NCBI RefSeq assembly: GCF_011745625.1
Contig: NW_027191455.1
Span: forward strand, 434,001 to 498,000
Direction: 5' to 3'
DNA length: 64,000 nucleotides
Origin: Cladosporium halotolerans
Lineage: Eukaryota
The translations under genes were made by a program, and so were the position numbers. Of the stretch, positions 3,384 through 44,363 are shown piece after piece. The stretch's first letter is position 1; each line of letters starts with the position of its first letter. A model generated the notes under the pieces. The model saw only the letters and a list, made by a program, of their open reading frames with translations, was not told the origin of the DNA and did not search any database.

Positions 3384-6074
3384 ATGACCACGCTCCTTCG
3401 ATCGCTCACGCGTCCATTTCTCCTTCTCCGAACACCATTTGCACCAGCGCCGGTCCCTGGCCCGCGATTACGATTTGCGAAACATCGTGCGCCAGCATAC
3501 ACAACCACAAATAAGCTCGAAGCAGCGAAAATGGCGACAATCCAGGCAGAATGGCGCCCTCCTCCCCAGCCATCCGAATCAGTCCAGAAAACGCTGCCGA
3601 AGCTAAGCATGTACAACACATTGACTCGGAATAAAAATGAGTTTGTGCCGCTGGATCGCGAGGGAAAGAAGGTGGGATGGTATGCTTGCGGGCCGACGGT
3701 ATACGACGATGCTGTATGTTCCCCTTGTGTCGCATTATAGTATGAAAAGGGGAAGAGGGAAATCGCTGCGGAGGAATCATATCCTTGAACATGTTTGCGC
3801 GGTGTCTTATCATACTTGAGACAACAACTGATCCGCTGATCCCAGCACTTAGGTCACGCTCGCAACTATGTCTCGACCGATATCATTCGCCGCATCTTGA
3901 AGGACTACTTCAAGTTCGACGTGAACTTCGTCATGAACATCACTGACGTAGACGACAAAATCATCCTTGCCGCGCGACAGCAGCACCTGCTCGAGGAGTG
4001 GCTCGCCAAGCACACCGATGTCGATCAGGATGTGAGGGAAACAACAGTGCAGGCACTCACAGCGTACCTCCAAAAGAACCTACCTCTGATCCCATCCGAT
4101 GTCAAGCCCGAGGCTTTTGCGAACGAGGTGGAGCGCGCATACGGACACGTCTTGAAGGGCAAGTCTGTCGCGAATGATGCCACACCTCCTGGTGACAAGG
4201 AAGCAAAAGTCAAGATGCACCTGAACACCACAAGATCCGCCGCCGAGGCATTGCAGCTAGAGCAGAAAGAACTGAGTGCTTTTGCTCTGAAAGCCTCCGG
4301 TGTTCTGCTGCCATACATTGATTCTTTGTACGGCACTTCTGTCCAAGGCAAGGATCACGAGATTTTCACGAAGCTTACGAAGAAATACGAGCAACGATTT
4401 TTCGACGACATGAAGGCCCTGAACGTGCTGTACCCCGACAAGCTGACCCGTGTGACGGAGTACGGGCCGCAGATTGTTGATTTCGTCAAGCAAATCGAGG
4501 ACAACGGGTATGCTTACGAGCATGAGGGTTCGGTGTACTATGACACCGGCAACTGGGAGAAGAACGGAGGCGTGTATGCTCGCTTGGAGCCTTGGAACCG
4601 TAACGACAAGGAACTTCAGGCCGATGGTGAGGGTTCGCTTTCGACGAAGAAGACTGGCTTCAAGCGTTCTGGCGCAGATTTTGCGCTCTGGAAGAGCTCG
4701 AAGCCTGGTGAACCATCATGGGAATCGCCGTGGGGTGAAGGCAGGCCCGGATGGCACATTGAATGCTCAGCCATGGCCTCGGACGTGCTGGGCAAGACCT
4801 TCGACATTCACTCTGGTGGTATCGACCTGTCTTTCCCTCACCACGATAACGAGCTGGCACAGTCCGAAGCCTACTGGTGCGGCAAGGACAAGGTGGATCC
4901 GCATGCCCAATGGGTCAATTATTTCCTGCACATGGGTCACCTGAGCATTCAAGGAAGCAAAATGAGCAAGAGTCTGAAGAACTTCACCACAATCCGCGAG
5001 GCCATCTCTCAAGGAGCTTGGACGCCTCGCGGATTGCGCATTGTCTTCCTCCTCGGCAACTGGAGGGATGGTCTCGAGATCACGGGAGAGGTCGTCAAGG
5101 CTGGTGTGGCATGGGAGGAGAGGGTCAACAGTTTCTTCATTCGCGTGCGGGATATCCAGCAGCGCTCGACCGAGGCCCAAATGAACGGCCTGTCCCTGCA
5201 AAACGGCAACGATGGCGCAGGATCAGACCTTCTCCAGAACCTCAGCACTGCCAGCCAGAAATTCCATGATGCCCTCTGCGACTCCTTCGATACCCCGACC
5301 GCCATGCGCGTCATCTCCGACCTCATCACCGCCTACAACTCCGCCTCCTCCGTCCCCGACACCACCTCCATCGCCATCGCCCAATGGCTCACCGAACAAG
5401 TCCACATGTTCGGCCTCGACTGCCACCCGCTGCAACCCACCCAAATCGGCTGGTCCGGCATTGACATCCCCGACGACGCCAAATCCCACATTTACCCTCT
5501 GGCCTCCCTCCGCGACCGCGTCCGCGAGCAAGCCATCGCCGGCGCTGTCGACATCGCCTCCCTCGGCGCCCTCTCCGGCGAGCCCACCGACGCCTCTAAC
5601 CCCTACGCAACCGCGCACGCGGGTTTCCAGCGCCGCCTCCTCGACCTCTCCGCCTCCTCCGCCCCGCCCAAAGACTACCTCGCCGCCTGCGACCACCTCC
5701 GCGACACCGCGCTGTGGAACCTATCCATCTACCTCGAAGACCGCGAGGGCCAGCCGGCGCTCGTGCGCCCGCTCTCAGCATCTCTGCGCCAGGAGCGCGC
5801 GGACCGCGAGCAGATGGCCGCTTCGAAGGCGGCGGTGAAGGAGAAGGCGAAGCGTGATGCGGAGGCCGCGGAGAAGGAGCGCCTCGAGAAAGGAAAGTTG
5901 AGCCATCTGGAGATGTTCAGGACGAGCGAGTTCAGCGCTTGGGACGCGGAGGGACTGCCGACGGCGGATGCGGAGGGGAAGGAGGTTGCGAAGAGCAGGG
6001 CGAAGAAGTTGAGGAAGGATTGGGAGAGGCAGAGGAAGTTGCACGAGGGGTGGGTTGCTGCGCAGGGGAAGTAG
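3384..6074 (+). CDS. CRS1: Cysteinyl-tRNA synthetase, 2 exons (3384-3713, 3846-6074); second in-frame ATG at 3531
   Basis: Splicing GTATGT..CAG gives [17 protein letters not shown] (HIGH motif). Also [41 protein letters not shown] and KMSKSLKN. Confidence 0.97.
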
Positions 6075-40278: not shown

Positions 40279-42004
40279 TCACTTCTTCCCATCAGTATCT
40301 TCCTTTGCGTCCTCATCGCCAGCGCCAGCAGCAGCGTCTTTGGCCTGCCCGTTTCCCTTGGCCTGAAGCCCACTCTGGGCGGCCCCAGTCCCTTTCGGCA
40401 CTTCCAGCGCCGGCAGCCCCTTGCGAACCCTATACATCTGCTCCACCGTCATAATCGGCACGCGCCTTCCAATCGGATCAAACCAACCCCAAAGCATCAT
40501 GCTAACCCAGTTCTCCCACAACTTCATCTCTCTCCTCACGCTCTCCCTCATAACCAACTGATCGATACGTACCAGCATAGGCGCTTGCCTCCCCAACCCC
40601 TTATGCACCGTCTTGATCGGCTGGTCGTCATCCCCCTCAACCGGCCCTCCAGTCATAAAATCCGTCCCTGGCGCAAACATCTCCCTGAAAACCCTCATAT
40701 CCAGCACCTTCAGCGCCTGCCCGGTGCCCTTACGCTGCACGGTCCCGACTTCGTCAAACGGCACGCCCATAACCCACAGCCCGGGCATCACCGGCTCCTC
40801 GCGCCCCGGATCGTAATAGTGCCTGACCCACAACTTCAGCACGTCGAGCCTGCGCAGCGGAATCGCGGGCTCGTTGGGGTCCGGGCCCCAGCCGCGCAGC
40901 ACGCGCCATAGCGGCACGAGCCCGCGCTCGCCCAGCAGCGTCTCGCGCAGCGTGCAGCCGACGTAGCCCTTGAGCGCGTGGCGCGGCGGGAAGCGGAAGG
41001 TGTCCGGGTGGTTGGCCGGGTAGATGGGGCCGAGCGGGTGCGTGAAGTGCATGTCAATTTTGAGGAAGAGGAGAGTCAGGAATTCGATGGTGCGTGAGCT
41101 GATGAAGGTGCTGCGCATGGCGAGCATGCGGTCGGCGGTTGTGGAGAGGTCCATTATGAACCAGGCGCGCTGGGAGGGGGGTGTTAGCTGGGGCTTGGGG
41201 ATGCGGGAGGGATGGTGCTTGGGGATGTGAAGTTACCTTGAGGGCATCGAGAGTTCCTGGCGGGCAACGGTGGCCGAAGGAGGCCAGGCGGATGAGGATG
41301 TCGACGCAGATGGTGTGGCGGAAGACGACGAACTGTAGCCAACGGAGCGATGGCACGTCCCGCAAATCATCAAATGGCTTCCTGACGCCGTCTTCCTTGC
41401 CGTCCCATCGCGTTTGTTGGCGTTGTACTGGGTCTTTCAAGCAGTACTTTTGGTAGAAACGCCAGGGGAAGGTGTGCTCAGAGCCGGGAGCCCAAGTACG
41501 CATATTGGCGAGGATTTGGGCCGTGTAGTGGCAGTTGAACTGGTGATGGTACCCTTTGCTGATGGCGTAGAGTGAGATGAGAGATGGGATGTTGAGGCAG
41601 CTTGTCAGGCGAAGAAGGAGTTCGTTGTTCGCGCAGAACGCGGCTATCATGTTGAACCTTTTAGGTTTCTTCTGATCTTGCTTGAAGATCTGCGGTAGCG
41701 GTATAGCGGATTCAGCGCCCTTGCCTGCAGTTTTTGTTGAATTTGAGTTGTCAATGACCATATTCAATCGAGAATGTTGTGAGTGTTGAGATATCGGGTC
41801 CACGCCCAGGTCGGTTTCGACCGCGCGAAGCTTCTTGCGCGGACTCGGTGTTTGTTCATGAGATTCAGGAGTATGCTCGTCTGCTTCGGCCGGCACTTCA
41901 TCAGCCCGGCGCTTGCGCGGATTGTCGAATGCATTGCCAGAAGCCATTTCTTGTGCCAGTCGCTTCTTAGTGCTGGCTGATGCGACGACGACCTCAGATT
42001 CCAT
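40279..42004 (-). CDS. Hypothetical protein, ORF B: low-complexity N-terminus then a globular, F-box-like-starting domain; intron 41170-41236; start uncertain (ATG 42529, ~42038 or 42004)
   Basis: NELLLRLTSCLNIPSLISLYAISKGYH..FPWRFY..CLKDP..VPSLRWLQFV..ALK|RAWFIMD..LFLKIDMHFTHP. Canonical GTAACT..CTAAC..CAG intron joins the two ORF-track segments in frame. Confidence 0.8.
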
Positions 42005-42743
42005 CGTGGGAGAAGGCTCGAGTCCCTGGGCTGACATATCCGTCTTGGACAGGGTAGATTTTGTCCTCTTCCTCTTTGCTTCCGAGTCTTCTGGAGAAGC
42101 GCTTGGATTTGCTGGAAGTGGTTGGTGGCGAGAAGACGGACCGGCTGCCACTGCTGTCAGGAGACCAGACGCTGGTGTAGTGGTGTCCGTCGGCGGAAGG
42201 TGATGAATTGAGACTCCCGCCGCGGCCTGATTTTCCTCCGGGCGGAGACCTGGCACTGCCGGTGTTGGCGACGTGGCCGGCCTTGACATTTCCTTTGCCG
42301 TAAATGTAGTCATAGGGCATGTAACCACTTGCTTTGCTTCCGCTTGGTGCGTGAGTGAGGTTGGGCTTCTGCTCGTCTTCGAAGCTGACCCGCCTGGGGT
42401 GCCCGGCTGTTGCGGCGGCGGTAGCGGCGGAGAGAGGGATCTCTTCGACGAGGGTGGCGTTGCCTTTGCGCTTGCTGCTGAAGTCGGCGATCCACTCGGG
42501 TTCGTCGGCAGTGTCTGATTTGGCGCCATTCTTGCGGCGGCCTTGCTCCGAGTCACGCTTTTTGCGCTCCTTACGCTCCTTGCGCTTCTTTTCTTTCTCC
42601 TCTTTCGGGTCCTTGCGCCACTTGTTTCCGACGTTGGTGTGCGGGGCGTAGCCTTTCTCGGGCCACATATGATAGTGGGAGACACAACAGAAGGCGATGG
42701 CGAGGAGACCGACAGTGAAGTAGTAGAGCCTGCCGATCGCCAT
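41994..42743 (-). CDS. Hypothetical 249-aa protein, ORF A: N-terminal membrane anchor, K/E/R-rich stretch, S/G-rich tail; overlaps ORF B out of frame
   Basis: First ATG after a 5'-UTR intron (~42762-42800, GTAAGA..CTAAC..CAG). C/G-ending codon bias in this frame. TM-like LYYFTVGLLAIAFCCV. Confidence 0.7.
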   Translation of the reverse strand: MAIGRLYYFTVGLLAIAFCCVSHYHMWPEKGYAPHTNVGNKWRKDPKEEKEKKRKERKERKKRDSEQGRRKNGAKSDTADEPEWIADFSSKRKGNATLVEEIPLSAATAAATAGHPRRVSFEDEQKPNLTHAPSGSKASGYMPYDYIYGKGNVKAGHVANTGSARSPPGGKSGRGGSLNSSPSADGHHYTSVWSPDSSGSRSVFSPPTTSSKSKRFSRRLGSKEEEDKIYPVQDGYVSPGTRAFSHDGI

Positions 42744-43225
42744 GTGTTTGTGGGCCGCGTGCTGCGCGAGGGTTAGGATGTTGAAATTTCGTGTTCTTAC
42801 CTTGTTTAGTTTGTTGAGAGGTCCGTGTCAACAATAGGGGGTTTGCTATTGTTGCTGCAACCGCGTGCTGTGGCAACGAAGCTTGTAGGAGTGAAGTGGT
42901 GGGAAGGAGCATGTGACCATTTCCCAAAAGACGTAATGCTTCGCGCTAGACGCGCATCAGGTAGTCGCGTGACCACCGGCGGGAGTGGAAGTAGAGTGAA
43001 ATGAGAGTGAGTGAGATTGTCAATCTTCGACATTGAAAGCATAATCAAACAAATACAAGAGTCGCTTACGCTGCGTTGAGCGTGGTGGTATCATCCCATG
43101 CGTGTAATCAACGGCCTGTTGAAATGGCCAACCTCTCACCTGTCCCAAAAGATCCAAACCCGAACGCCTGCCTTTGCATCATTCCTTTAATGCATACTCA
43201 AATGGTGAGAGGCACTGTTCCTTCG

Positions 43226-44363
43226 CTACTTCCTGTTGATCAGGGTGAGGAACTCATCCCTGGTCTTCGCACGCTTCCGCATCGCGCCGAGCATGCAGCT
43301 CGTAGTGGTTGACGAGCCAGACTTCTGGACGCCGCGCATAACCATGCACATGTGCGCGGACTCCATCACGACGGCGACACCCTGAGGCTTCAAAACTTCG
43401 CTAAGCGCGAGCGCAACCTGCTTGGTCAACCGTTCTTGGACTTGTAGACGTCTGCTAAACATCTCTGCAATGCGAGCGAGCTTGGACAGGCCGATAACTC
43501 GCCTCGAAGGAATATATCCGATGTGCATCTTTGGGTCAAGTCAGTCAAGGCAAGTACGCGGGCATCCACCGAGCAAGAGGACGTACCTTTCCAACGAACG
43601 GCACCAAGTGGTGCTCGCACAAACTGTACACCTCAATGTCCTTCACAATGACAAGCTCATCATGATCTTCGTGGAAAACAGCACCGTTCACAATATCCCG
43701 CAAGTTCTCCTCATATCCCTTCGTAAAGAACATCATTGCCTTCGCATACCGCTCTGGAGTTCCATGCAAACCCTCTCTATCCGGGTCCTCACCGATGCAT
43801 TCCAAGATCGTCCGCACCGCACCCGACAGTTTCGCTAACCGCGCTTCCGCGTCTTTCGGGCTCTCGCGCTCATGCAGGCGACTCAAAGTGCCAGAGCTGG
43901 GCCACGACAACCCCTCGAAGTCAACGGTAGGGTTCGAGGTGATGAACGGGCTCTGGCTGCGCGTCTCGACCGCCGGAGGCGTGGGCGGCGCTTCGTCGCG
44001 CAGGTCACGCGCGGCAGCGTTGGTCTGCAGGGCTTCGATTTCGTCGTCGCCGACCTCCTCGTATTGCTTCGCGGATTTTTTCTGCTCGCCATTGGTGCTC
44101 GTCTCGCCCACGGGAAGCTTGGTTGCCGTGGAGTCTTGGAGGGAGAGCTCTTCGAGCGACAGGGGCGCTTTGTGCGGACCCATTGAGGACTGGATGGATG
44201 CGAAGGTTGTCTCGCGTTCTCCCTGGTCCCGCTCGGCTCTAGACGGGGAAGAGGACTGGTGCAGTGGGGAGTGGCCGTTGATGAGGTGTGGTGGGATTGC
44301 CTTCGGTCTCGGGGCGTAGGTGTGGTGTTCGTCGTCCATGGTGGAACGTGAGGAACCTGTCAT
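43226..44363 (-). CDS. FOL2: GTP cyclohydrolase I; intron 43529-43586
   Basis: [66 protein letters not shown]. Confidence 0.97.

Follow-up and report, generated by a model that had tools for sequence, protein, structure and literature searches.

We analyzed a 64,000-nucleotide (nt) stretch of Cladosporium halotolerans DNA (contig NW_027191455.1, positions 434,001 to 498,000; here referred to as the window and numbered from its first letter), in which two genes, designated A and B, lie on the reverse strand and overlap in different reading frames. Comparison with related sequences indicates that the overlap is conserved family-wide and is more general than was first noticed, that A and B are both genuine, conserved coding regions, and that a short zone at the 3' end of A, comprising only its last tens of codons, is truly dual coding. 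We favor the reading that two separate proteins are made, B being translated from an AUG of its own frame (frame B, the +1 frame of A) within the 3'-terminal part of A, most likely from a shorter mRNA.

The original prediction described A as an open reading frame (ORF) whose +1 frame is also open and runs into the spliced gene B, with no intergenic space between the two. When coordinates and frames were re-derived, this out-of-frame overlap on one strand was recovered as described (Table 1), and zero intergenic space was found. Frame B has no stop codon from position 42772, through the stop of A, to the 5' splice site at 41237. Just upstream it is closed, as had been claimed, both in the unspliced form (TAA, 42775 to 42773) and when a putative intron (42800 to 42762) is removed (TAA, 42808 to 42806). 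The AUG contexts also agree with the earlier description: the first two AUGs of A have C at -3 (42743, aaacacATGg; 42668, tatcatATGt), the two B-frame AUGs read gcaagaATGg (42529) and cccacgATGg (42004), and the string ATGGAATCTGA is found where the last of these meets the stop of A. Read from its sequence, the product of A has an N-terminal membrane anchor, then a region rich in K, E, and R, and finally a disordered tail of low complexity, and the basic stretch after the anchor suggests a topology in which the tail would lie in the cytosol. The intron of B is supported by the tblastn segments B1 and B2, which differ in frame, and by intron-less homologs that cross the junction as ...DALKR(L/I/M)WF.... 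Exon 1 of B contains the motif FDNPRKRR (41929 to 41906), the counterpart of which in relatives is LGNLHKRR.

A metagenome scan with the B alignment yielded 17 loci, three of which have only 165 to 312 nt upstream of the B match. In all 14 loci with enough upstream DNA, a same-strand homolog of A is located ahead of B, and in 13 of these B lies directly in the +1 frame of A. In the remaining locus (L012), an intron (GTAAGT ... CGCTAAC ... TAG) follows the anchor exon of A, and after its removal, worked out by hand, B is again in the +1 frame. The original prediction had proposed looking for the overlap and its frame offset in related genomes; both are kept in 14 of 14 loci and in the window, which together represent about eight lineages (the window; L001, L005, L006, L007, and L010; L002, L004, and L009; L013 and L014; L015; L017; L016; and L012). 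The length of A varies from 86 to 260 codons, yet its stop is always located 55 to 169 nt before LGNLHKRR, the first conserved motif of B, and the seven distinct values of this distance are all in phase. Depending on the locus, the stop of A is TGA, TAG, or TAA, and it is preceded by any of nine sense codons (ATC, ATG, ATT, GAT, GAC, CGC, CGA, CAT, or GAG). Frame B is open for 539 to 794 nt upstream of the stop of A. Two natural variants from different lineages, L007 (P0090, a three-member cluster) and P0089, carry a premature stop that shortens A by 27 codons; it replaces one and the same Gln codon in both and follows ...SKHA(T/A)V. In L007 this stop (996 to 998) is located 11 nt past a frame-B AUG, frame B is intact, and the frame of A is still open past the premature stop. 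As a side observation on L012 (3595 to 3675), the most distant of the loci, a second AG located 4 nt past the acceptor (TAG followed by CCAG) would join the anchor exon in frame with B, which may be due to chance.

Homologs of A numbered 35 (137 to 346 amino acids [aa]; 37 to 99% identity; coverage mostly 98 to 100%), and a search of 1.84 billion cluster representatives with the A profile returned 34 clusters, 32 of which are 72 to 346 aa long; the single long match of A is from Cladosporium. Codon positions 1, 2, and 3 of A differ at rates of 0.096, 0.128, and 0.200 between L001 and L005 and at rates of 0.100, 0.072, and 0.207 between L002 and L009, and the indels among A homologs are whole codons. 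The near-invariant anchor, the 35 homologs, and the greatest variability at position 3 bear out the claim that ORF A is coding and carries a membrane anchor. For B, 63 homologs were identified, the named ones being from Teratosphaeriaceae, Elasticomyces, Teratosphaeria, and Pseudocercospora. Taken together, the named matches of A and B point to a dothideomycete, probably of the Capnodiales sensu lato. The label "F-box domain-containing" is attached to B homologs only in UniRef records P0054 and P0062; Pfam searches with B exon 1, B exon 2, P0102, and P0061 gave no family at an E value of ≤0.1, and no match to an F-box profile. The Pfam search with A gave nothing above the cut-off, the only hit being MAP17 (E = 0.056), which is below it, and the protein Atlas gave only subthreshold leads (<0.9), namely, DUF7730 and 2EXR for B. 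The AlphaFold2 model of P0009, an intron-less B homolog (22 sequences), has a mean predicted local distance difference test (pLDDT) score of 51.

The frame split between A and B is not an assembly artefact. The original prediction had called for an indel to be excluded, and we aligned to the region contigs of three other public sequencing runs (X1, X2, and X3), which are 95 to 99% identical to it. The X1 contig covers the whole region at ~97% identity; among its listed indels (40121 and 40133, 41226 in the intron of B, and 42836 upstream of A; six further indels are not among these), none is in the coding sequence of A or B. The X2 (41510 to 42095) and X3 (41873 to 42203) contigs cross the stop of A without gaps, and P0067, from another assembly and 99% identical to A, has the same C terminus. 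All three contigs retain the intron of B and thus behave as DNA. The independent assemblies therefore keep the same frame structure and the same stop of A.

It is consequently very improbable that A and B are an ordinary single gene, either joined by an unseen intron or split by an assembly indel. In favor of such a gene, annotators merged the N terminus of A with B in at least five genera (models are found in Pseudocercospora, Elasticomyces, a Teratosphaeriaceae sp., Cladosporium, Neophaeotheca, and Oleoguttula), but the merged models switch frame at different points in close relatives (P0061 versus P0062 and P0065), and P0064 reads frame B throughout. A joining intron had been named in the original prediction as grounds for abandoning it, and the sequence scan revealed no plausible one: in all nine full-length loci, the right-phase GT..AG pairs that span the stop of A lack a GTRNGY-like 5' site, and L017 has no candidate GT..AG pair at all. 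Moreover, intron lengths vary, so that a constant +1 offset would be unexpected, the frame of A is conserved to 3 to 7 residues before its stop, and the frame structure is common to independent assemblies.

The only proteins that combine the anchor of A with B are NCBI gene models, which allow introns. In the Pseudocercospora fijiensis model, the switch from A-like to B-like sequence is located at a point other than that in P. eumusae and P. musae, whereas the P. fuligena model is in frame B over its whole length. In the Elasticomyces models, the anchor is joined directly to frame B, with omission of residues conserved in A, and in Teratosphaeria destructans B alone is annotated. Reading the deposited models that are discordant in this way (P0038, P0046 to P0055, P0061, P0062, P0064, P0065, P0102, P0108, and P0125) from their protein sequences, we interpret the merged ones as work-arounds by gene predictors. 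The expectation that standard gene callers would have difficulty here is thus matched by public annotations that conflict at the locus.

The original prediction also emphasized that the +1 frame is free of stops across the whole of A. The frame is indeed open, but it exceeds chance only weakly and gives no evidence for dual coding over the full length of A. When the codons of A were redrawn from the usage of B, the window and six loci had expectations of 1.0 to 3.3 stops in the +1 frame, compared with 0 to 2 observed (window, P = 0.017; six loci, P = 0.19 to 0.54), and when the synonymous codons of A itself were shuffled, the expectation was 0 to 1.7. The +2 frame over A contains 4 to 10 stops. 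Since a +1 stop requires a codon of A that ends in TA or TG, and A has few hydrophobic codons, few +1 stops arise. The frequency of G at fourfold sites is 0.07 to 0.14 in A versus 0.16 to 0.31 in B in all codon families, and the G-poor third positions are general in A, not confined to codons at risk of creating a frame-B stop. The long open +1 frame is thus mostly a by-product of the composition of A, with its few hydrophobic codons and C-rich, G-poor third positions. Third positions of A, which are the second positions of frame B, change at a rate of 0.20 to 0.30 versus 0.23 to 0.35 in B, and synonymous differences per codon pair with identical residues amount to 0.244 in A versus 0.302 in B. 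The third positions of A thus change nearly as fast as those of B, and most of A is not visibly dual coding. Dual coding over the whole of A was rejected because stop avoidance is near expectation and third-position divergence is near neutral.

The comparison of selection by frame that had been proposed thus gave a divided result, being near neutral over most of A but reduced in synonymous change at its 3' end, where the synonymous-difference rate over the last ~45 codons is 0.14 to 0.16. The PG.R.F motif of A is near-invariant in 31 homologs, and in L002 it is encoded by codons that are rare for A (GGG, 1/21; TCT, 2/22; CGG, 1/29; and CCT, 0/17). The joint probability of these rare codons is ~1e-5 to 3e-4 in L002, L004, L006, L007, L009, and L010, and their third bases (G, T, G, and T) spell (Q/L)GLGLS in frame B, or QVLGLS in L010. 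The rare codons that spell GLGLS are located upstream of the stop of A, indicating that frame B is translated before that stop in several lineages. Of the 34 B-frame proteins that extend 45 or more residues beyond LGNLHKRR on its N-terminal side, 22 have G[LI]G 16 to 45 residues upstream of that motif, and in 12 it is located at exactly -32. In L015, the GLGLS motif is located ~10 codons past the stop of A, so there it is plain B sequence with no overlap. The motif is degenerate in the window (QGLEPS), where the dual-coding signal is weaker, and in L001 and L005 (QRGELS and QRSGLF); in these three, a frame-B AUG is found right after the degenerate motif, at -8 or +7 from the stop of A, which fits a start codon that has moved. 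Both frames are thus under selection in the overlap over the last tens of codons of A, and the presence of a selected frame-B motif upstream of the stop of A accords with the earlier claim that B starts inside A.

The candidate starts of B in the window are 42037 (-41 from the stop of A) and 42004 (-8). In relatives, the nearest upstream frame-B AUG is located 8 to 170 nt before the stop of A, and all 12 loci that have LGNLHKRR have a frame-B AUG upstream of it. Full-length A contains two to three AUGs in frame A, five to nine in frame B, and none in the +2 frame; an AUG in the +2 frame would need a Cys or Trp codon in A, so this pattern follows from composition. In the 3' half of A, every AUG is in frame B except for the A-frame AUG at +423, and almost any transcript that starts there would therefore give B. 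In L001, L002, L004, L005, L007, L009, and L010, another ORF ends ~100 nt before the ATG of A (e.g., ...PLYDPKPPRKGSK...), and in those loci the promoter of A itself must be located inside the neighboring ORF.

In the dense genome of the fungus Zymoseptoria tritici, Iso-Seq revealed many same-strand genes with overlapping untranslated regions (UTRs) and rare polycistronic reads (10.1101/2023.04.26.537486). Promoters inside neighbors, these overlapping transcripts, and the frame-B AUGs in the 3' half of A together lead us to rank an internally started B mRNA first. The product of A is a small anchored protein with a basic stretch and a disordered tail, and that of B a conserved fungal protein. 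Translation of B would begin at a frame-B AUG near the end of A, and 3 to 35 codons at the end of A would be read in two frames. The likeliest route to that AUG would be a shorter mRNA with its 5' end inside A; scanning past the two weak AUGs of A on a long A-plus-B mRNA, or reinitiation, would be less likely routes. The mRNA of A would then have to end inside B or run through B, and transcription from the promoter of A could interfere with the promoter of B, by analogy with the long undecoded transcript isoforms of yeast. We infer both the start site of B and its mRNA indirectly, from the gene sequences. Among the four mechanisms listed in the original prediction (leaky scanning, termination-reinitiation, +1 frameshifting, and a promoter inside A), a promoter inside A and leaky scanning appear to be the most likely.

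Several observations weigh against separate initiation of B. The position of the frame-B AUG is not conserved, ranging from -170 to +106 nt relative to the stop of A. The AUG of the SKHATV block has been lost in L001, L010, P0006, P0012, P0019, and P0026, and a positionally conserved frame-B start codon was rejected on the grounds that this AUG is missing in several lineages. No lineage has a spacer between the stop of A and B, as a translational link would likewise predict. The C-terminal peptide of A is conserved up to the stop, as PG.R.F plus 3 to 7 residues in one clade and as P(I/L/T)QRWR just before the stop in another (L015, L017, P0113, P0117, and P0128), in which A is 86 to 176 aa long. 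Nascent peptides that act at stop codons typically show this kind of conservation. The RNA-Seq run X16 contains one close contig of 235 nt (42293 to 42527), which is wholly inside A; its two other matches are short and weak. In addition, the GLGLS argument is post hoc and rests on about three independent lineages. In L015 and L017, the three differences within the P(I/L/T)QRWR stretch are all synonymous in frame A, which points to frame A as the selected frame there in that clade. Near 3616 to 3639 in these two loci, the frame-B translation of this stretch is (P/R)F(S/N)DG, resembling the frame-A FSHDG of the window clade.

Some of these observations would also be expected if A and B were one gene in which a fraction of the ribosomes that start at the AUG of A slipped by +1 into frame B toward its end and produced an ~800-aa, membrane-anchored A-B fusion in addition to the short product A. 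We consider such a frameshift unlikely, although the window and all 14 loci, from about eight lineages, have the +1 relation, the stop of A is always 55 to 169 nt before LGNLHKRR without a spacer whatever the length of A, no frame-B AUG is fixed in position, and the peptide of A is kept right up to the stop. There are also precedents in the conserved frameshifting of the nuclear Rab-GDI displacement factor gene in Pezizomycotina (PMC5009743) and in antizyme, in which a +1 shift occurs at the ORF1 stop, in fungi among others (PMC1874602, PMC4505036). However, none of the four features of programmed +1 frameshifting that we looked for (a shift site, a structure, a start-less ORF2, and fused relatives) was found. 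The known +1 shift heptamers CTTAGGC, CTTAGTT, and GCGAGTT are absent from all 14 A ORFs, CTT plus a stop occurs once among them and out of frame, and with nine last sense codons and three types of stop there is no fixed codon-stop shift site. In pseudoknot-free folding, the 90 nt after the stop resemble shuffled sequences in 13 of 14 loci (z, -1.5 to +0.6; L002, z = -3.6), and the predicted structures are not common to the loci. ORF2 has AUGs upstream of its conserved motif in 12 of 12 loci, and no single-ORF, in-frame A-B protein was present among the ORF-called metagenome and run-assembly proteins. The early stops of A in L007 and P0089 are also difficult to reconcile with frameshifting at the usual stop. 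A +1 shift exactly at the stop of A is particularly disfavored, as the selected frame-B GLGLS, being upstream of the stop, would be left untranslated. A shift farther upstream is possible and compatible with the evidence. It is doubtful that a fusion arises from a shift that uses signals unlike known shift sites, perhaps the C-terminal nascent peptide of A. If it were true, an entire order of dothideomycetes would have retained the frameshift, with A and the fusion made in a regulated ratio, and such a fusion, if demonstrated, would be of high interest. Transcriptional slippage was considered and set aside, there being no homopolymer longer than 3 nt near the junction in the window.

Expression of both proteins from one bicistronic mRNA without recoding, either by leaky scanning to the 5'-most frame-B AUG (position 42529 of the window) or by reinitiation, seems to us more improbable still. 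Leaky scanning would give B a long, overprinted N-terminal extension. The bicistronic reading partly coincides with the favored one, the two being distinguished only by the transcript involved and by the extent of the overlap. In the three full-length lineages, position -3 of the first two AUGs of A is C in 9 of 9 loci, the AUG that follows these two weak ones is in frame B and has a purine at -3, the +2 frame contributes no AUGs inside full-length A, frame B is open over the hundreds of nucleotides given above, and leaky scanning has a precedent in green algae (PMC11291117). This AUG pattern is, however, what the composition of A yields by itself; position -3 of the AUG of A is G or A in L012, L013, L015, L016, and L017; and the long frame-B extension would be without visible selection, given the third-position rates of A and B presented above. 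For reinitiation, a frame-B AUG is located within 11 nt of the stop of A in the window, L001, L005, L010, and L012, and also beside the premature stop of L007. In eukaryotes, ribosomes reinitiate inefficiently after an ORF of 250 codons. The core sequence TGGGA of the calicivirus termination upstream ribosome-binding site (TURBS) is missing within 90 nt before the stop in 13 of 14 loci (present in 1), and outside the loci just named the AUG is 37 to 106 nt from the stop of A. Termination-reinitiation, one of the mechanisms first proposed, is thus not supported in its calicivirus form.

Several known systems resemble the A-B locus in part. In human genes, frameshifted internal ORFs (iORFs) are expressed from alternative transcripts in which the main start is skipped (PMC11526972). 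The A-B locus is similar to these iORFs and to Zymoseptoria in that one strand is used in two frames and the downstream protein would come from a transcript that omits the upstream start, and overlap between neighboring transcripts is common in this fungal order, as described for Zymoseptoria (10.1101/2023.04.26.537486). In contrast to both, each partner of the A-B pair is long and conserved, and their overlap extends beyond UTRs into coding sequence and is kept in every relative seen. The likeness to antizyme is that ORF2 is in the +1 frame, overlaps the end of ORF1, and lacks a position-fixed start, and that the ORF1 peptide is conserved by the stop; unlike antizyme, A-B has a variable stop and last codon, no downstream structure, and a selected frame-B motif before the stop, and the sequences show no similarity. 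Like A-B, the Rab-GDI displacement factor gene belongs to the nuclear genome of filamentous ascomycetes and has an upstream ORF of modest size that runs into a longer, less widespread one, an arrangement retained for a long evolutionary period; it uses a defined slippery site and a pseudoknot for a mostly -1 shift, neither of which signals was seen at A-B, and the proteins are unrelated (PMC5009743). Leaky scanning in green algae is similar in having weak-context upstream AUGs and a downstream AUG in better context; the ORFs are usually nonoverlapping there (PMC11291117), and the weak context of A is not kept beyond three lineages.

Upstream of A, the distance from the end of the GTP cyclohydrolase I gene (43226) to the ATG of A is only ~480 nt. 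The putative intron in the 5' UTR of A is read straight through in P0067, a contig-derived protein of a near-identical strain. A palindrome is located in this interval (Table 1), and the stop of a 24-codon upstream ORF (42920 to 42846) falls within its left arm. Elements resembling the palindrome (AACAATAGCAA ... CTATTGT) are found 90 to 100 nt upstream of the ATG of A in the three distant loci L013, L015, and L017. The palindrome could be a transcription factor site or a 5'-UTR hairpin.

Table 1. Features of the A-B locus and its upstream flank (window positions)
Feature	Position	Strand	Remarks
ORF A	41994..42743	(-)	ATG 42743 to TGA 41996..41994; 249 codons plus TGA
Hydrophobic anchor of A, residues 5-22, MAIGRLYYFTVGLLAIAFCCV	42678..42731	(-)	Near-invariant across 31 homologs
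K/E/R-rich stretch of A	42528..42623	(-)	Length differs among relatives
Two-frame overlap zone	41994..42037	(-)	From B-frame ATG 42037 to the stop of A; second B-frame ATG at 42004
PGTRAF (frame A)/QGLEPS (frame B), codons CCA GGG ACT CGA GCC TTC	42012..42029	(-)	
Gene B, exon 1	41237..42004	(-)	Counted from ATG 42004; includes an F-box-like helical region
Gene B, intron	41170..41236	(-)	67 nt; GTAACT ... GCTAAC ... CAG
Gene B, exon 2	40279..41169	(-)	296 codons plus TGA
Putative intron in the 5' UTR of A	42762..42800	(-)	39 nt; GTAAGA ... CCTAAC ... CAG; from sequence only
Palindrome CAACAATAG-N8-CTATTGTTG	42829..42854	(-)	~90-110 nt upstream of the ATG of A
GTP cyclohydrolase I, 3' end (upstream neighbor)	43226..43540	(-)	Pfam PF01227, E = 5e-42

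To our knowledge, conserved out-of-frame, same-strand overlaps of two long coding genes are rare in eukaryotic nuclear genomes, and a search of open-access and bioRxiv full text gave no report of this pair or of any fungal nuclear genes whose coding regions show a conserved overlap on one strand. The overlap described here is kept in every relative seen, those named being Cladosporium, Elasticomyces, Teratosphaeria, Pseudocercospora, Neophaeotheca, and Oleoguttula. Public annotation has arrived at no fewer than four incompatible solutions for the locus (the anchor spliced to B, a switch from A to B at varying points, frame B throughout, and B alone), so that the deposited proteins of the A-B family are unreliable. 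The gene comparisons suggest that A and B are probably expressed as two proteins without recoding, and the locus offers a clean test case for distinguishing an internal promoter from leaky scanning and from recoding.

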